Below, in pieces: positions 2,360-21,491 of a DNA stretch of 64,000 bases. Made by a program: the position numbers and the translations under genes. Below the pieces are notes generated by a model that was given only the letters and a program-made list of their open reading frames with translations, did no database searches and was not told where the DNA came from. The stretch is from positions 18,686 to 82,685 of the forward strand of contig JBBDYI010000290.1 of assembly GCA_040901705.1 (NCBI GenBank), in the 5' to 3' direction. The number at the start of each line of letters is the position of its first letter. The first letter of the stretch is position 1. The stretch is from Pirellulales bacterium (GTDB taxonomy: Bacteria > Planctomycetota > Planctomycetia > Pirellulales > PLA5).

Positions 2360-4405
2360 ATGGCATACGGTCGCGAAATTGTCGAACTCGTGGCGCAACG
2401 TCAGGATTTGGACCAATTCCGCAAGAAGAATTGGGAAGGCACGTTCGAGCAGTATCTCGACATCGTGCGCGAGATTCCCAAGGTCACGCGGAACGCCTTC
2501 GAGCGAGCTTACGACATGATCGTGTCGTACGGCGTCGAGGAATCCGGCTCGTCGCGCGACAAGCAGTCGACCTATCCGTTCTTCAGCGACCCGGAAGGAA
2601 ATGGTCGCGACGCGGTGTTTGGGCTGGAAGACGCGTTGCACGCCCTGGTGAACGCCTTCATGAGCGCGGCCAAGGGGTACGGAATCGAGAAGCGCGTGCT
2701 GTTGTTGCACGGTCCGGTGGGGAGCAGCAAGAGTACGATCGCCCGCGTGCTGAAGCGCGGGTTGGAACGCTATTCGGCCACGGACGCCGGTGCGCTGTAC
2801 ACGCTGGGCTGGCTGAGCATGGACGGCGATGGCGACGTCGACTGGTGCCCGATGCACGAGGAGCCGCTACACATCATCCCGACGCGGTTTCGCCCGGACG
2901 CGCTGACTCGGCTGAACGAGGGCCGCGGCGCGGAAGATTATCACGCGAAGATCGTGGGGGCGCTGTGTCCGTTTTGCCGCTATCACTATGCCGAGCGGCT
3001 CAAGCGTTACGAAGGCGATTGGACGCGAGTGACGCAGGACGTGCGGATCAAGCGGCTGCTGCTGAGCGAAAAGGACCGCATCGGCATCGGCACGTTCCAG
3101 CCCAAGGACGAGAAGAATCAAGACTCGACCGAACTGACGGGCGACATCAACTATCGCAAGATCGCCGAATTCGGCAGCGATAGCGATCCGCGGGCGTTCA
3201 ACTTCGACGGCGAATTCAACGTCGCCAATCGGGGCGTGATCGAGTTCGTCGAAGTCCTCAAGCTCGACGTAGCTTTTCTCTACGACTTGCTCGGCGCCAG
3301 CCAGGAACATTGCATCAAGCCGAAGAAGTTCGCGCAAACCGACATCGACGAAGTCATCATCGGCCACACGAACGAGCCGGAGTATCGCAAGCTGCAGAAC
3401 AACGAGTTCATGGAAGCGCTCCGCGATCGGACGGTGAAGATCGACATTCCTTACGTCACGAAGCTTTCGGACGAAATCAAGATTTACGAGAAGGACTACA
3501 ACCGCCGCACGGTCCGCGGCAAGCACATCGCGCCGCATACGATCGAGATGGCGGCGATGTGGGCGATTCTCACTCGGCTGGAGGAGCCGAAGAACGCCAA
3601 CCTGACGTTGCTGCAAAAGCTCAAGCTGTACAACGGCAAGACGTTGCCGGGCTTTACGGCCGAGAACATCAAGGAGCTGCGCGAGCAGGCGACCACCGAA
3701 GGCATGCTCGGCATTTCTCCGCGGTACGTGCAGGACAAGATATCCAACGCGCTGGTGGCGCATCCCGACGCGAAATCGATCAACCCGTTCATGGTGCTCA
3801 ACGAATTGGAAGCCGGACTCAAGCACCACTCGCTGATCACGAACGAGGAACTGCGCGGCAAATATCGCGAGATGCTCGGCGTGGTAAAGGAAGAGTACGA
3901 AAACATCGTGAAGAACGAAGTCCAACGGGCGATCGCCGCCGACGAAGACGCGCTCAAACGGCTGTGCGCCAATTACATCGACAACGTCAAAGCGTACACG
4001 CAGCGCGAGAAGGTCAAGAATCCGTTTACGGGTCAGAACCAGGAGCCGGACGAGCGGCTGATGCGGTCGATCGAGGAGAAGATCGAGATTCCGGACAGCC
4101 GCAAGGACGACTTCCGCCGCGAGGTGATGAACTACATCGCCGCGTTGTCGCTCGACGGCAAATCGTTCGATTACAAGAGCAACGAGCGGCTGTATCGGGC
4201 GCTGGAGCTCAAGCTGTTCGAGGACCAGAAAGACACGATCAAGCTGACCAGTCTGGTGTCGAAGGTCGTCGACGCCGACACGCAGGCGAAGATCGACGTG
4301 GTCAAATCGCGGCTGATCCGCGATTACGGCTACGACGACGAGAGCGCGAACGACGTTTTACATTACGTAGCCAGCATTTTCGCGCGGGGCGACGCCAAGA
4401 ATTAA
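2360..4405 (+). CDS. prkA: PrkA/YeaG-family serine protein kinase
   Basis: Track ORF 2321..4405; preferred ATG at 2360 ([11 protein letters not shown]...). Walker-A block [15 protein letters not shown] and the length are typical of PrkA. Followed by the canonical YeaH-like and SpoVR-like partners. Confidence 0.9.
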
Positions 4406-4878
4406 TCGGCCGTGGCGATTTTTCTTGATGCAAAGCAGTGGACGCCGAATAGGATGAAATAAGAGGCGGCGAGCCGAAGTCGCCGAAAAAACGAATCAAC
4501 CGAAAGGGCACAATAGGGCACCGAGAAGTGCAAGGGCATCGCTGGACTGAGTAACCACCGACGAGCGGCAACGCTCGGCGGAATTGCTCGATCGTGCCGC
4601 ACTTTCGCTTCGACGTGTCCACCGGACAAGCGCGTCGGCCAACTTCGCGATGGCGGCGCGCGGAATGCCGCGGCACTCCGTTGTGCGGCGGCGAAGCAGT
4701 TGTTGCTGGACAAATGAATTGACAACTTGGCTTGGCGAGGGACGGAACGGAATCATGCGGCGATGGATCGTCGGCGTGAACGGAGGCCCGACGAACGCGA
4801 TCGCGCGGCGACGATAGCCGCGTCGGTTTCGCTCGTTGGCGATTCCGCGACGACCCTCGACGGACTGGGGGATCGACC

Positions 4879-16719: not shown

Positions 16720-17164
16720 ACGCAACCAGCGCCGCCACGCCCAAAGCGCAGACAACCAGCGGCCACCGCCAGCTGCGCTTCGCAAGGCCCCGTTCCGGTC
16801 GAAACCAACTGCCAACGCCAATCGCGGCAAGCTTCCTAGTTTCGCAGACGCTCAGGGCAAGTCAAGCGCTTCGGCCGAGCGGTAGTGGTCTGATTAGTGT
16901 GTTGCGGGCCGGACGACGCCTGATTAACGGTGGCCTGGAAGTCCGCCGGCAAATCCAACCCAACATAATTCAATTGAGCACAATGGCGGCCGCGACACAA
17001 ATGGCAAAAAGGATCGGAAGTGGCTCAAATTGCCAGGCGCGCAAGAACAATCGCGCGAATTCCCTGAAAAATGAGCAGTGACATTACGAAAGAAGGCGAG
17101 TGGCTCACGCTTAATTTTAAGGGGATTGCCTCATCGCACCCGCAAGTGTGCCATGAACAATTCC

Positions 17165-17203
17165 TGGCCTAACGGCGTGCGGGTTCGAGTCCCGTCGGGC
17201 AGC
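17165..17203 (+). pseudogene. tRNA 3'-half remnant (T-arm + acceptor 3' strand)
   Basis: gcggg-ttcgagt-cccgt is a canonical T-arm (GGTTCGAGTCC). It is followed by a 7-nt acceptor strand cgggcag and then c. The upstream sequence gives only a poor D arm and anticodon arm, with no U33 or R37. It ends 14 nt from the stop of the convergent DUF4411 gene. Confidence 0.4.
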
Positions 17204-17216
17204 ATTGCGGAAATCG

Positions 17217-17687
17217 CTAAAACGAGAATTGTTCGGCAACAAGCATGTCTCTGGTCGAGATGCACCCTACGCCTAGTCCCAGGCACACGTCTGGAATCTT
17301 CGGGTCATTTTTGCCACCGCTGCCTTCTTCGCATACCACAGTTGCTCCCCAAATCTGAGCGTGGGCAATTAGCCAAGGGTCAGCCCCCGAGCGTCCAGTG
17401 CCCTTAAGTTTGACAATACGACCATAGTACGTGTCTTGCATTATTGCCTTCAGTGCGAGCACAACATCTTCTGTTGTCTCTCGGACAAATTCGCGTCTCT
17501 GCCTAATCCATGCCAACAACGAATCGTCCTGCTGTTCAATTTCTTCATACACCTCCCGAGGAACAATCGCCCGTCCAGATGTCAGCATGTCTGAAAGGAA
17601 CGTCCAAAACTTCGGCGCAAAGATTGGCTGATAGTGCTTCTGCCAGCCGTTGACGAGAACGCCGGTATCGAGGCAGTATTTAGTCAC
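17217..17687 (-). CDS. DUF4411 family protein (PIN-like nuclease fold)
   Basis: 156 aa. The layout MTKYCLDTGVLVN...REVYEEI...GADPWLIAHAQIWGATVVCEE...KIPDVCLGLGV matches my recollection of DUF4411 (PF14367). The start lies 4 nt after the stop of the ImmA/IrrE gene. Confidence 0.78.
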   Translation of the reverse strand: MTKYCLDTGVLVNGWQKHYQPIFAPKFWTFLSDMLTSGRAIVPREVYEEIEQQDDSLLAWIRQRREFVRETTEDVVLALKAIMQDTYYGRIVKLKGTGRSGADPWLIAHAQIWGATVVCEEGSGGKNDPKIPDVCLGLGVGCISTRDMLVAEQFSF

Positions 17688-17691
17688 TGAT

Positions 17692-18849
17692 TTACTCGCC
17701 CACCAACCGTTTTTCGAGGTCAGGCAAGAACTGGCTTTTCATGCTTAGCAGGTCCGACACGTCAGGCCCCGTTATCCTATCTTCTCTGTACGCCGAAACG
17801 ACCGCTTTTCCGAATCGTCTCCCAACGGTGGAAAGAACAATTGTCGCCTGCTTTATTCTGACTTGATTCCGCCTCTTGTCCTTGCGCCATTCTCCTCGCT
17901 GCCTTAATTCGACGACCAGCCGTTCGTAAATGTGGTGATTGATAAATCCATGCTGCAAGAGTTTTCTAGCGATCACTTCTTGGCTTACTCGATACATGGC
18001 CGCCAGAGACGGCAAAGATTGCTCATACTCCCCGGAGCCACGCTTTGCCACTGCAATAAAATCCTCGCTTGGAACCAGCGCCTCTGCGGCAACGGCATTG
18101 CAAAAAACTTCGATCTTCTCATCATCGGTGTTGGCGGTGCTCTCAATTGCGCGATCCGAGATTCCGGATATGTTAAGCATCACATGCGCCATCTCGTGCA
18201 TTAGGGTGAAGATACGCCCACCAAATCGGTCACGATCATTCACCACCACAATTGGCGCGACCTCGTGTGCCAATGCAAAACCACGCATCTCACTGAGCGG
18301 AACCTTGCGGCTCAGAAATACCGAGACGCCAGCGGCTTCGCATTGTGATCGCCAGTAGCGAAAGGCGGATTGTTTATCCGGCAGGGCTTTTTGTTCTTCA
18401 AGACTGACACCCAACAGGTTTCTAAGTCGCTTGCCAACGTCTATTGGGCTTTCCGTGTAGCTGGAGCGTCCAACAAACGGCAACGGCTCACGGCCATGAG
18501 ATTCGAGATATTCGGCGAGCCATTCCTGGCGGCCCTGTGTGATTCGCGTCCAGTAGGCAAGTTCGCGGGATAGCACGCCCCTATCAGGCGACGGTAGCTT
18601 TCGGAAGTCACGAACCGGATGCCACTGAGGCGGATTTGGTAGATAGAATACGGCAGTCGGGAATCGCAAGAACTTCGCCAACGCCCTAAGCTGCGGTAAT
18701 GTAGGGGTCTGCACGCCAAATTCCCAAAACATGACGTCGCGGTCGGCCAGTGCGAGTTTATCGGCCACTTGCTCTACAGTGACTGCGGCTCGCTCACGAC
18801 ACCACACGATCATGGCCGACTCAGCGTGCGAGGGGATTACTTTAGACAT
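17692..18849 (-). CDS. XRE-type HTH fused to an ImmA/IrrE family zinc metallopeptidase (COG2856)
   Basis: 385 aa. N-terminal HTH region (VTVEQVADKLALADRDVMFWEFGVQTPTLPQLRALAKFL) and HExxH site FTLMHEMAHVMLN, as in ImmA/IrrE. Confidence 0.85.
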   Translation of the reverse strand: MSKVIPSHAESAMIVWCRERAAVTVEQVADKLALADRDVMFWEFGVQTPTLPQLRALAKFLRFPTAVFYLPNPPQWHPVRDFRKLPSPDRGVLSRELAYWTRITQGRQEWLAEYLESHGREPLPFVGRSSYTESPIDVGKRLRNLLGVSLEEQKALPDKQSAFRYWRSQCEAAGVSVFLSRKVPLSEMRGFALAHEVAPIVVVNDRDRFGGRIFTLMHEMAHVMLNISGISDRAIESTANTDDEKIEVFCNAVAAEALVPSEDFIAVAKRGSGEYEQSLPSLAAMYRVSQEVIARKLLQHGFINHHIYERLVVELRQRGEWRKDKRRNQVRIKQATIVLSTVGRRFGKAVVSAYREDRITGPDVSDLLSMKSQFLPDLEKRLVGE

Positions 18850-18938
18850 GCGTGAACCCCCGCAATCCAGCCCATGTCCGGGATACTATGAACCCGCTCC
18901 TGCCTTTCCTTGATAGCGACGACTGACTCTCTAGTCCC

Positions 18939-19024
18939 GGAGGGCGGTCCGCGCCTTGGCGGCGCAGCGGTCTTATAAACTGCCATAGGTTCCTCACGGA
19001 AGGGTTCGATTCCCCCGCTCTCCG
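18939..19024 (+). pseudogene. tRNA-like element (86 nt), probably a decayed or non-canonical tRNA
   Basis: 7-9 bp acceptor pairing ggagggcgg / ccgctctcc. Anticodon-like arm gcggt-cttataa-actgc (UAU at the anticodon position). T-loop GGTTCGATTCC, but the T-stem has two A-C mismatches (aaggg/ccccc). The D arm lacks the conserved GG, and the variable region is 16 nt. The 3' end abuts the stop codon of the convergent RHH gene, with CTA in place of CCA. Confidence 0.35.
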
Positions 19025-19216
19025 CTAGCGCCGCTTTGGCGCTTTCTCGGCGGCTTTGTTCAGGCACTCCCGTATCCATTCCGACAGGCTTTTGTCTGCG
19101 GCATAGGCAGCGCTCGCCCACTTGGCCTTGTCGTCGGCTGTCAATCGAATCTGGAGGGTTTCCGGCAACGTTGTGCCCGTCGGTTTCGGCGGTCGTCCCG
19201 AACGCTTCTTTTCCAT
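19025..19216 (-). CDS. Ribbon-helix-helix (CopG/Arc/MetJ-type) DNA-binding protein
   Basis: Start chosen at 19216: MEKKRSGRPPKPTGTTLPETLQIRLTADDKAKWASAAYAADKSLSEWIRECLNKAAEKAPKRR (63 aa). The pattern is beta strand (LQIRLT) plus two helices. Palindromic operators lie immediately upstream. Confidence 0.7.
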   Translation of the reverse strand: MEKKRSGRPPKPTGTTLPETLQIRLTADDKAKWASAAYAADKSLSEWIRECLNKAAEKAPKRR

Positions 19217-19283
19217 GTAATTACAGTAATGACTAAAATCTATACCGTCAACCCCTTGCTTATTGTAATTACGGTAATTACAA
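19216..19283. promoter_or_regulatory. Palindromic operator-like sites upstream of the RHH gene
   Basis: Perfect palindrome tgtaattaca (19216-19225, overlapping the RHH start codon). A 21-bp near-palindrome ttgtaattacggtaattacaa (19263-19283). Both share the GTAATTAC core in an AT-rich spacer. Confidence 0.45.
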
Positions 19284-19286
19284 TAA

Positions 19287-20380
19287 GGTCGTGCAAGAAA
19301 ACCCCGTTGCAGCCGGCAAGCCGCAGCGGGGCGAATCACAACTAGGCTTTCGCCCAATCGGACCCAAGTATCTCGATTGTAGCGAGAGCCGCAACAAAAG
19401 GCGACTCTCCGATGGCAAATGTTCTCCCCCGCGACAAGCAAATCTCGGTTCTCCACCATCTAGTCGAAGGCAACACGCTCCGCAGCACGTCGCGGCTGTC
19501 GGGCGTCGCCCGCAACACGATCACGGCCCTCATGGTCCGGTTCGGCGAGGGCTGCCAGCGACTTCTGGACAGCAAGTTGCGCGGCCTCACGCTCGATCAC
19601 GTCGAGACGGATGAAATCTGGTCCTACGTCGGCAAAAAGCAGGGCCGACTAACCGACGAAGAAAAAGCCGAACGGTCGGATATCGGCGACGTGTACACGT
19701 TCACTTGCCTTGACCAGGAAACGAAATTGATCGCGGCGCACGTCGTCGGCAAGCGGTCTGCCGACAACGCTCGCCGGTTGATGATGCAACTGGCCGGCCG
19801 GCTAAACTTCCCGAATCCGCACGCGGGCGACGACCACGCCTTCGGCACTGGCGGATTCCGGCCGATCATCCAAATTTCGACGGACGGCTGGCCAGGATAC
19901 CCTGAGGCTGTTGACTTGGCTTTTGGTCCCTATGCGCGGTTTGGAACCATCGTGAAGGATTACCGCAACGCCGAGCAACCCGGCCGCTACGCGCCGCCGG
20001 AAATGATAGGGACCGTCCGCCGCGGCATAACCGGGATAGAAACCGCCGACGAATGGTCGATATGCACGTCGCACGTCGAACGGCACAACCTGACGATCCG
20101 CACGTTGATGAAGCGGTTCACGCGGCTCGGCGTGGGGTTCAGCAAGTGCGTCGAAAACCACGCCGCTGCCGTCGCCGGCTTCATCGCGTTCTACAATTTC
20201 GTCTGGCGGACGCGGTATCCCGACGATAGCGGGCGGCCTGGAAAACTGCGGCCGACGGCGGCGATGATGGCGGGGGTGACAAACACGCTGTGGAGTTTCA
20301 CGGACCTGTTCGACGCCGCGATGGCCGTATAGAATTCGACCGGTGAACAAGCTTAGGGCCGGCGGGTTTCTTCTATGACC
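19287..20380 (+). mobile_element. IS1-family insertion sequence (boundaries tentative)
   Basis: Single transposase ORF. Candidate imperfect terminal inverted repeats are ggtcgtgcaagaaaaccccg (19287-19306) and the reverse complement of cgggtttcttctatgacc (20363-20380), which reads ggtcatagaagaaacccg. Both begin with GGT as in IS1. No flanking target-site duplication is visible. Confidence 0.5.
19412..20332 (+). CDS. IS1-family DDE transposase (single fused ORF)
   Basis: 306 aa. N-terminal HTH (NTLRSTSRLSGVARNTITALMVRFGEG). IS1 InsB-type blocks DEIWSYVGKK, ISTDGWPGY and HVERHNLTIRTLMKRFTRLGVGFSKCVENH...FYNF. Confidence 0.8.
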   Translation: MANVLPRDKQISVLHHLVEGNTLRSTSRLSGVARNTITALMVRFGEGCQRLLDSKLRGLTLDHVETDEIWSYVGKKQGRLTDEEKAERSDIGDVYTFTCLDQETKLIAAHVVGKRSADNARRLMMQLAGRLNFPNPHAGDDHAFGTGGFRPIIQISTDGWPGYPEAVDLAFGPYARFGTIVKDYRNAEQPGRYAPPEMIGTVRRGITGIETADEWSICTSHVERHNLTIRTLMKRFTRLGVGFSKCVENHAAAVAGFIAFYNFVWRTRYPDDSGRPGKLRPTAAMMAGVTNTLWSFTDLFDAAMAV

Positions 20381-20587
20381 CGTCGGCCCGCACTTTGCGC
20401 CTTGCCGGACACTTAGGTAGACGTATACGATTCGTTAGTGGACTTAGTACAGAACGGAAGGCTTGTTCACCAAAGCTCTTGCCGCTTCTGGCACGCCAAA
20501 AACCAAACAGAAGATTACTGCCACACGTTGGACTGTGTGTTCAGGGATGTACCTTCCTTGCCTCACGGAGGGCCTGCCTATGGTGAC

Positions 20588-20899
20588 TTAATCATCCTCC
20601 CCATCGCAGAGGTCGCGTTCGGATCGCGTGGCGCGCGGAAACAGAGTTAGCATCATCCAGGATTCAGAGGGATCGCCCTCCATCCAGGCAAGGATAAACT
20701 CTCGACTTGCATCGCGGCACGCCGTTGCAATCCGTTCGCGGTTGTCTGCATGTACCGGCTGCTTAGCTGGCTCGCCGGTGGCAATCAGGTGGTCGATTTG
20801 CGCCAACTCGTAGCCGAGGACGAAGCATTCGTGCGCGCCCAGGGAATCAAGTTCGCCATTGTCGATCCCGAACGATTTGATGAGTCCATATTGTGACAT
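20588..20899 (-). CDS. Hypothetical acidic protein (103 aa), orphan
   Basis: Intact ATG ORF with balanced, protein-like composition (MSQYGLIKSFGIDNGELDSLGAHECFVLGYELAQIDHL...). No motif I can assign. Located in the low-GC island. Confidence 0.5.
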   Translation of the reverse strand: MSQYGLIKSFGIDNGELDSLGAHECFVLGYELAQIDHLIATGEPAKQPVHADNRERIATACRDASREFILAWMEGDPSESWMMLTLFPRATRSERDLCDGEDD

Positions 20900-20926
20900 T
20901 TTTGAAACTCAACTTGAAGGTGATAT

Positions 20927-21094
20927 ATGTCTGTTCCGATTGGTACGACCGCAAAGACCGGCGAAATCTGCCCGGAGAGCGGTGTTTGGCAAGTTGTTGG
21001 GACTCCCAGCACGACGGCCCCGATTGCCAAGGGCAACCGGATGCCGCCGTACAACAACCAAGCTGTAACTTGGAAGTTGACGGCCTACGCTTAG
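20927..21094 (+). CDS. Small protein (55 aa), YjzC-like pattern
   Basis: Not in the track because it is under 60 aa. ATG preceded by GAAGGTGA. MSVPIGTTAKTGEICPESGVWQVVGTPSTTAPIAKGNRMPPYNNQAVTWKLTAYA. The K-x-G-x3-P-x2-G-V-(W/Y)...(G)-x-R-(M/F)-P...V-W pattern recalls B. subtilis YjzC. A strong intrinsic terminator follows 22 nt after the stop. Confidence 0.5.
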   Translation: MSVPIGTTAKTGEICPESGVWQVVGTPSTTAPIAKGNRMPPYNNQAVTWKLTAYA

Positions 21095-21115
21095 TAGGCG
21101 AGTTGTGTGCCAACG

Positions 21116-21148
21116 ATCCCCGCGGGATGGAGCCCGCGGGGATTTTTT
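21116..21148 (+). terminator. Rho-independent terminator
   Basis: Perfect 11-bp stem atccccgcggg / cccgcggggat, loop atggag, then T6 (21143-21148). Confidence 0.85.
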
Positions 21149-21491
21149 GGGCCGGGATCGTCTCAGGAAGTTCTTTCCCAGGCAATGCCAAAGCGTACAA
21201 TGGCCGTACTGGCAGCGATGCCAGCGAGAAGAATTCGAGCCGCCCAGGAATTGAGAAGCCAAGGGCGGCTTTTTCATGCGCTCAATTCTACCGATCCGGT
21301 CGACAACGGGCCACGGCCCGCTTTTTCCTTACTCGATTTCAATTTGAGCCACTATCAAAGGATCACGAGGCAGGTGATAACCAATCTCGGCCGCGGCTTG
21401 CGCCCAGGAGGCTTGCCTGCCTTCTCCGGCGACTGGTACGGATTCTCGTTCTCGGCCATGCTGGCATTGTAACGAACCGGCTGTCCGCCGT

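Follow-up and report, generated by a model that had tools for sequence, protein, structure and literature searches.

The window analysed here, a 64-kb stretch of a Pirellulales (Planctomycetota) metagenome-assembled genome to whose positions the coordinates below refer, carries two adjacent minus-strand genes, which encode a predicted zinc peptidase with an N-terminal helix-turn-helix (HTH) domain and a PIN-like protein of the DUF4411 family. We consider it probable (about 0.78) that this pair is a type II toxin-antitoxin (TA) operon of the VapBC52 kind, residing on a horizontally acquired island of 4.6 kb (Table 1). The assignment is made because both proteins are full-length homologues of VapB52 and VapC52, because the zinc ligands, the D-F-R motif and the acidic residues of the PIN domain are conserved, and because the association of the two families is almost obligate. 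As for its novelty, the pair is a divergent planctomycete member of a TA kind that is known and experimentally characterised. An earlier note on this DNA (below, the original prediction) had held that the DUF4411 partner was without an experimentally defined role and that the system was undescribed; this claim has to be given up. The mycobacterial Rv2515c was named as early as 2009 as a COG2856-Xre fusion predicted to sit in operons with PIN toxins (Makarova et al. 2009, PMC2701414), DUF4411.1 genes were placed downstream of fused DUF955-HTH genes in a later prediction (Matelska et al. 2017, PMC5499597), Rv2514c was found to be toxic and to be rescued by Rv2515c (TASmania, Akarsu et al. 2019, PMC6504116), and structure and mechanism followed in 2026.

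The two proteins were compared with those of the PDB by phmmer, and identities were taken from BLASTP. The antitoxin matches PDB 9VZY chain A with an E-value of 1.9e-38 (aa 10-378 on chain residues 3-383), and the toxin matches 9VZY chain D (E 3.8e-15) and 9VZZ chain A (E 3.4e-14), these entries being the deposited structures of Mycobacterium tuberculosis VapB52/VapC52 (Rv2515c/Rv2514c). The identity amounts to 29% over 389 columns for VapB52 and to 32% over 138 aa for VapC52. The PDB library of Foldseek ends at 2026-04-08 and so is without 9VZY, which was found by sequence search of a later PDB copy. According to the paper on this pair (Singh et al., NAR 2026, PMC13273310), VapC52 is a PIN-type tRNase; it cleaves tRNAs, tRNA-Ser species among them, in the anticodon or variable loop. 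VapB52 is a 46-kDa antitoxin that begins with a five-helix, DNA-binding-like N-terminal domain (NTD) and ends with a C-terminal domain (CTD) of four helices; between the two lies a zinc peptidase resembling IrrE and CapP, which contains an HTH subdomain. In the crystal one antitoxin molecule is bound per toxin dimer, its NTD lying on the outer face and its CTD over an active site. In vitro, VapB52 cleaves itself at a conserved 'FR' motif in a reaction that is triggered by single-stranded DNA (ssDNA), depends on HEXXH and releases the NTD. In VapBC52 the toxin is gated by direct protein-protein neutralisation and self-cleavage (Singh et al., 2026), unlike the cleavage of a separate repressor by ImmA/IrrE. 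By analogy, the full-length homology to VapB52 and VapC52 backs the idea, already put forward in the original prediction and right in its essentials, that the DUF4411 protein may be a nuclease effector gated by its HTH-protease partner in a TA-like or defence-like module.

In the Pfam search, the Peptidase_M78 domain (PF06114) matches aa 170-297 of the antitoxin with an E-value of 2.4e-16 and 60 bits against a cut-off of 22, whereas the HTH_31 match is weak (E 0.008, 16.9 bits, below the cut-off of 27). Most homologues of the antitoxin, in turn, bear precomputed HTH_3/HTH_31 matches. The AlphaFold2 (AF2) model of the antitoxin (mean predicted local distance difference test score, pLDDT, 90.7; predicted template modelling score 0.89) consists of five N-terminal helices (11-20, 25-31, 36-44, 51-61 and 65-69), a peptidase core of mixed alpha/beta structure and, at the C-terminus, four helices (334-342, 344-355, 361-368 and 372-383). 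The N-terminal ~60 aa, comprising the five helices, superpose on SinR, the CapH NTD, C.BclI and DdrO with a root-mean-square deviation of 1.1-1.5 Å. Since the homologues have HTH matches and the modelled N-terminal helices superpose on HTH proteins, we take the predicted N-terminal HTH to be real despite its sub-cut-off Pfam score, and the earlier description of the protein as an Xre-type HTH fused to an ImmA/IrrE core with the sequence HEMAH can be upheld. The best PDB folds for the whole model are CapP (7T5T), PprI with ssDNA (8SLN), IrrE (3DTI) and PrpR (6CZ6), and the same set of structural matches is given for VapB52 by its authors (Singh et al., 2026). The antitoxin also matches phrog_2439 over its full length (E 1.6e-50), a family labelled 'transcriptional regulator' in PHROGs.

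The residues on which a self-cleaving peptidase of this type would depend were followed through 166 sequences of the antitoxin family. H218, E219, H222 and E247 are invariant or nearly so, and H218, H222 and E247 stand for the zinc ligands H216, H220 and E245 of VapB52, which has C229 as its fourth ligand (Singh et al., 2026). In the linker between the NTD and the peptidase, D81 and R83 are invariant in 166/166 sequences, with F, L or Y at position 82. This linker (pLDDT 71) is, along with the loop aa 231-240 after HEMAH (pLDDT 70) and aa 321-330, among the stretches of lowest confidence in the model. One more residue of this region is C250 (nt 18100-18102), three residues past the zinc-binding Glu in the motif E-V-F-C-N; it is kept in 164/166 sequences, VapB52 included, and no discussion of a role for a Cys of this type was found in the available part of the VapBC52 paper (PMC13273310).

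As to the toxin, DUF4411 (PF14367) covers it along its full length (E 4e-36, profile positions 1-159 of 159), and its AF2 model (pLDDT 91.2) has VapC15, VapC11, the F-plasmid VapC and FitB as best folds, so that the earlier identification of the downstream product as a PIN-like DUF4411 protein was correct. NCBI names it 'DUF4411 family protein [Pirellulales bacterium]', and, like the antitoxin, it matches a PHROG family end to end. Five acidic residues, D7, E49, D103, E121 and D133, are conserved among 29 sequences of the toxin family. Judging from these alignments, the catalytic residues of both proteins, as well as the proposed cleavage site, are intact.

Both open reading frames (ORFs) are present where they had been placed, and the sequence itself shows the spacing of 4 nt between them. 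For the antitoxin gene, the long start codon is backed by conservation of the first 12 residues among homologues. The order of the genes, with the antitoxin first, and the short spacer are consistent with a single operon in which translational coupling is probable.

Distribution of the pair

The original prediction had proposed co-conservation of the two genes as a test, and the census bears it out overwhelmingly: the pairing of the HTH-peptidase with DUF4411 is almost obligate (~99%) across many phyla, plasmids and viral contigs. Genome loci seeded with DUF4411 (41 loci, one genome per species, from Proteobacteria, Chloroflexota, Acidobacteriota, Actinomycetota, Desulfobacterota and others) have the antitoxin family directly upstream on the same strand in 39/40 informative cases. 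The same search in IMG/VR viral contigs gave the pair in 12/12 informative loci (13 in total). Metagenome contigs were scanned from the other side, with an alignment of 13 closer protease sequences as the seed, and here DUF4411 lies directly downstream in 75/76 informative loci out of 80. In the paired loci of the three sets the two genes are next to each other or overlap. At the only two loci without the partner (L041 and L089), transposases of the IS630 type have been inserted into the module or next to it. The pair is retained in all four closest relatives that were looked up, and a profile search returned 8,546 family representatives at 50% clustering. DUF4411 homologues are further found on 49 plasmid records, 27 of them conjugative, where their neighbours are annotated as 'ImmA/IrrE family metallo-endopeptidase' or 'XRE family transcriptional regulator'. 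About 7/41 genome loci contain split or frameshifted copies of the genes. One metagenome contig (L124) carries two antitoxin-toxin pairs in tandem, at 110-1758 and 2965-4598. The study of VapBC52 concerned a single organism, and the present census extends it to many phyla, plasmids and viral contigs.

Proposed mechanism and alternative explanations

In the mechanism that we favour, the two genes would be transcribed together, antitoxin first, across the 4-nt spacer, and the DUF4411 protein should be a metal-dependent PIN RNase with D7, E49, D103, E121 and D133 as its acidic site, the conservation of these residues being observed and catalysis being predicted from it. By analogy with VapBC52, the antitoxin would neutralise the toxin by direct binding, one molecule per toxin dimer, with its HTH domain docked outside and its CTD covering the active site. 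The trigger would be built into the antitoxin itself: upon accumulation of ssDNA, as in DNA damage or phage replication, the IrrE/CapP-like peptidase may cut its own D-F-R linker, and this cleavage would release the N-terminal domain and free the toxin. The freed toxin could then cleave tRNAs in anticodon or variable loops, as shown for VapC52, and stop translation, the likely outcome being growth arrest or abortive infection, with the island stabilised incidentally. In this scheme the homology, architecture, motif conservation, operon structure, pairing and mobility come from the present analysis, and the binding mode, ssDNA trigger, tRNA targets and phenotypes are carried over from VapBC52.

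Several points weigh against so close an analogy. The identity to the characterised pair is low, so that both the substrate and the trigger could differ. The 'cysteine-switch' Cys of VapB52 is not present in the window antitoxin, which has Ser231 at its position. Upstream of the antitoxin gene we found no sigma-70-like promoter and no operator-like repeat, except for a 6-nt inverted repeat which is likely due to chance. PADLOC contains no model of the toxin, and no system would be called by it at this locus. Finally, the protection of M. smegmatis against phage D29 was obtained by over-expression of VapC52, whereas the toxin co-expressed with the antitoxin gave no protection (Singh et al., 2026), which leaves defence by the native pair an unproven role even in mycobacteria.

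The point concerning Ser231 deserves closer consideration. In the VapB52 crystal, C229 caps the zinc and was therefore called a 'cysteine switch' (Singh et al., 2026). In the alignment of 166 sequences this column contains Ser in 105 (63% of the family), Cys in 57 and other residues in 4; the switch Cys is a trait of VapB52 and no defining mark of the family. With Ser231 in its place, auto-inhibition must either work differently or be weaker, and this step is not transferable from VapB52 to the window protein. IrrE/PprI proteins are not known to have such a switch Cys and nevertheless respond to ssDNA; for this reason activation by ssDNA is still plausible for the Ser231 form. The 'cysteine switch' proposed for VapB52 and CapP is missing in about two thirds of the family, the window protein included, and the Ser form, being the majority, would need a mechanism of activation other than the published one.

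Among the alternatives, the pair might be a plain addiction (post-segregational killing) module, which only stabilises the island, plasmids or phages carrying it, senses neither phage nor DNA damage, and has a peptidase that serves for antitoxin turnover. This would agree with the position of the pair on a small insertion beside a transposase, with the abundance of homologues on plasmids and viral contigs mentioned above, with the frameshifted or insertion sequence (IS)-broken state of several chromosomal copies, which is to be expected of selfish modules, and with the failure of the intact VapBC52 pair to protect against phage D29 (Singh et al., 2026). We nevertheless regard it as unlikely to be the whole explanation: the peptidase active site and the D-F-R motif are invariant over the 166 sequences, which argues for regulated cleavage over passive instability, the self-cleavage of VapB52 is specific to ssDNA (Singh et al., 2026), and CapP and PprI, which have the closest folds, are sensors activated by ssDNA. 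An addiction role is, however, compatible with the VapBC52-type mechanism, and the two are not mutually exclusive.

A switch of the ImmR/ImmA or DdrO/IrrE type, in which the fused HTH-protease would be a self-cleaving repressor of island or prophage genes and the expression of DUF4411, not its activity, would be gated, is in our opinion very unlikely. The island contains no integrase, excisionase or other regulated cargo operon, the partner is DUF4411 in ~99% of loci whatever the context, direct 1:2 binding with occlusion of the active site is seen in the VapBC52 crystal (Singh et al., 2026), and the lack of an operator-like repeat upstream of the antitoxin gene is at odds with a repressor as well. 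These observations prevail for us over the fact that ImmA, IrrE and CapP, whose targets are HTH repressors, also belong to the M78 family, the likeness of the N-terminal domain to the DNA-binding domains of C-proteins, SinR and DdrO, the common autoregulation of TA operons by their antitoxins, and the label given to the family in PHROGs. Lastly, the pair could be what is left of a mobile element in decay and have lost its function. The degenerate tRNA-like sequence and the IS element adjoining the pair and the split or frameshifted genes in ~7/41 genome loci could be taken for signs of this; since neither ORF is shortened in comparison with its family or its PDB chain, no catalytic or motif residue has been lost, and the AF2 models are confident, this explanation has hardly any likelihood. 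The reading of the pair as a VapBC52-type TA operon is thus the one that we retain.

The island and its other cargo

The boundaries of the island follow from comparison with a relative that lacks it. Locus L139 (GCA_029259895.1) aligns at 82-83% nucleotide identity to window positions 22004-21480 and 16870-12938, and at the empty site (966-1033 in L139) an EVE-domain gene and a zinc-ribbon membrane gene stand 66 bp apart where the window has 4.6 kb. The G+C content is 0.50-0.58 inside the island and 0.62-0.69 in the flanks, and that of third codon positions (GC3) is 0.55 and 0.58 in the two genes of the pair versus ~0.8 in the flanking mutS and membrane-protein genes. The lower-GC island of the original prediction is therefore a real one, delimited both by the dip in G+C content and GC3 and by the empty site, and it is a small, mobile and horizontally acquired element.

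No direct repeats flanking the insertion were recognised when the window was compared with L139. A 14-nt perfect inverted repeat, AGTGGCTCAAATTG, occurs at 17019-17032 and 21340-21353, near both ends, and was considered as putative terminal repeats of the island, but is not relied on here: alignment does not lengthen it, and it may be due to chance (~0.1 matches of this kind expected). An integration of the island into a tRNA gene of the host was rejected: the empty site of L139 is without a tRNA, and the two tRNA-like elements of the locus are both contained in the insertion, with 3' ends that do not repeat one another.

Apart from the pair, the island carries a gene for a small ribbon-helix-helix (RHH) protein whose matches are all weak (NikA-like E 0.0013, LmbU family 8e-4, HicB-like phrog 0.0019) and, divergent from it, an IS1-family-like transposase gene (DDE_Tnp_IS1 E 2.6e-11; transpos_IS1 2.9e-14, below the cut-off) with a host-like GC3 of 0.79. 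The perfect palindrome between these two genes is probably an operator. Two small ORFs of 103 and 55 aa gave no match in Pfam, NCBIfam, PADLOC or PHROG, and in the same databases no integrase, excisionase, CBASS (cyclic oligonucleotide-based antiphage signalling system) or other recognised defence gene was found on the island.

The original prediction had also noted two tRNA-like remnants on the opposite strand, bracketing the pair. One of them is in fact a complete tRNA-like gene of 87 nt with the anticodon UAU, detected by ARAGORN at default settings; it belongs to the insertion and diverges from the antitoxin gene, upstream of which it lies at a distance of 90 bp. The other, just downstream of the toxin gene, is no more than a degenerate tRNA-Leu(CAA)-like sequence, which ARAGORN detects only at the 80% threshold, where false positives also appear, and which has no Rfam match at E<=1. 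In its minimum free energy fold the UAU gene has an acceptor stem of 9 bp, a T stem of 3 bp and a variable arm of 4 bp; the folding energy is no better than that of shuffled sequences (z -1.2), and the Rfam match of the gene is tRNA-Sec with 31.7 bits (E 0.003), below the gathering score of 47. The gene looks like a 9/3 'allo-tRNA(UAU)'. Allo-tRNAs have a 12-bp acceptor branch (8/4 or 9/3), a variable arm that is long, and an anticodon not belonging to serine, for example UAU, and the UAU group was reported to occur near TA systems and transposons and to be mostly inactive in translation (Mukai et al. 2017).

As the UAU gene, the one unusual item of the locus, adjoins the operon, as allo-tRNAs have been reported near TA systems, and as VapC52 cuts anticodon or variable loops, one could propose a functional tie between allo-tRNAs and tRNase TA modules of this kind, the tRNA being a decoy or sponge for the PIN toxin, its preferred substrate, or a co-mobilised payload; we hold such a tie to be quite improbable. 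A scan of the three closest relatives (L140-L142) found no tRNA-like gene, with only 71 bp at hand upstream of the antitoxin gene in L140, and among 135 loci there are only 2-3 odd, long tRNA-like sequences, so that the allo-tRNA-like gene is not supported as a conserved part of the module. It is cargo of the island. In ~10/135 loci the pair has a tRNA or tRNA-like gene no more than ~400 bp away. At L037 (2555-2644, minus strand) a 90-nt tRNA(GUC) with an 8-bp acceptor stem lies 105 bp upstream of the pair and divergent from it, in the same geometry as in the window, and at L096 (4675-4763, plus strand) an 89-nt tRNA-like sequence with an 8-nt anticodon loop lies 20 bp downstream of the pair.

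Table 1. Features of the putative toxin-antitoxin operon and of the surrounding island (window positions).
Feature	Positions	Strand	Description
Antitoxin gene	17692-18849	-	385 aa, ATG start; Xre-type HTH, linker, M78/IrrE zinc peptidase and four-helix C-terminal domain (predicted)
N-terminal Xre-type HTH domain	18640-18822	-	~aa 10-70; predicted; counterpart of the VapB52 NTD, which is bound to the toxin dimer at its outer face
D81-F82-R83 motif	18601-18609	-	linker between NTD and peptidase; aligned with VapB52 F75-R76 (RDFRRL of 9VZY_A); proposed self-cleavage site
M78/IrrE peptidase core	17959-18342	-	aa 170-297, Pfam stretch
HEMAH zinc motif	18184-18198	-	aa 218-222; zinc ligands H218 and H222
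Ser231	18157-18159	-	position of the VapB52 'cysteine-switch' Cys229
E247	18109-18111	-	zinc ligand
C-terminal four-helix domain	17701-17850	-	aa 334-383; corresponds to VapB52 CTD, which occludes the toxin active site
Intergenic spacer	17688-17691	-	4 nt between antitoxin TAA (17692-17694) and toxin GTG (17685-17687)
Toxin gene	17217-17687	-	156 aa, GTG start; DUF4411 PIN-like protein, putative VapC52-type
Insertion (island)	16871-21479		4.6 kb, low GC3; absent from relative L139
tRNA-Leu(CAA)-like remnant	17126-17203	+	degenerate, just downstream of toxin gene; T-arm GGGTTCGAGTCCC visible
tRNA-like gene, anticodon UAU	18939-19025	+	87 nt, long variable arm; ARAGORN default settings
RHH-type DNA-binding protein gene	19025-19216	-	63 aa; island cargo
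Perfect palindrome	19259-19287		CTTATTGTAATTAC G GTAATTACAATAAG, 14+14 nt; between divergent RHH and IS1-like transposase genes; probable operator
IS1-family-like transposase gene	19412-20332	+	DDE_Tnp_IS1 match
Small ORF	20588-20899	-	103 aa; within island, divergent from the 55-aa ORF
Small ORF	20927-21094	+	55 aa; followed by G+C-rich hairpin and T run, ~21120-21150

Comparison with known systems

Several described systems share parts of the window pair. RosmerTA (RmrT/RmrA) comprises phage-defence TA systems (Millman et al. 2022; Ernits et al. 2023, PMC10440598) whose antitoxin likewise combines an HTH with an ImmA-type zinc peptidase; 13 RmrA models of PADLOC match the window antitoxin, the best being PDLC03949 (E 2.2e-18, aa 170-373), and in the NetFlax network the ImmA antitoxin node is associated with PIN-like toxins (PMC10440598). 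However, RmrA matches mainly the peptidase half, the window toxin matches no PADLOC family, RmrT included, at E<=0.01, and the characterised RmrT toxins are unrelated to it, one of them, for example, being membrane-depolarising. A partial match to the spr1629 family repressor/antitoxin (NCBIfam NF052239) has 24.2 bits (E 1.6e-5) against a curated cut-off of 335 bits. Membership in RosmerTA, PD-Lambda-2, CapP/CapH or the spr1629 family was rejected in the PADLOC and NCBIfam comparisons, the matches being partial and confined to the peptidase half, the toxin unmatched and the scores below the cut-offs. In PADLOC-DB v2.0.0 (2023), which has no model of the toxin, this abundant module goes uncalled.

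CapP/CapH and IrrE(PprI)/DdrO provide the best folds for the middle domain (7T5T, 8SLN and 3DTI; the PADLOC capP model matches with E 2.7e-11), and in both an M78 peptidase activated by ssDNA has an HTH protein as its substrate. Unlike ImmR/ImmA, DdrO/IrrE and CapH/CapP, the window protein has its HTH fused in cis, and no separate repressor gene, CBASS or repair regulon is adjacent to it. The 'three-component' systems of HTH, DUF955/COG2856 and PIN proteins predicted earlier (PMC2701414, PMC5499597) agree with the window in having DUF4411.1 downstream of a fused HTH-DUF955 gene; in those papers a separate Xre antitoxin was assumed to be the substrate of the protease, whereas in the window pair, as in VapB52, the two are one chain. 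Canonical VapBC systems share the PIN fold of the toxin, with VapC15, VapC11 and FitB as the best structural matches, but their antitoxins are RHH, AbrB or Phd proteins of 70-100 aa, in contrast to the window antitoxin of 385 aa with its enzyme domain, and their stoichiometry is 2:2 or 4:4 as compared with 1:2 in VapBC52 (Singh et al., 2026).

VapBC52 itself differs from the window pair in sequence (29% and 32% identity), host (the window pair being from Planctomycetota), location (the window pair being on the 4.6-kb island) and in having Cys229 at the position of Ser231. The two share the following features: the gene order is the same, both protein families are shared over their full length, the antitoxin has three domains (an HTH NTD, a HEXXH+E peptidase and a four-helix CTD), and the D-F-R motif of the linker and the acidic residues of the PIN domain are conserved in the window pair.

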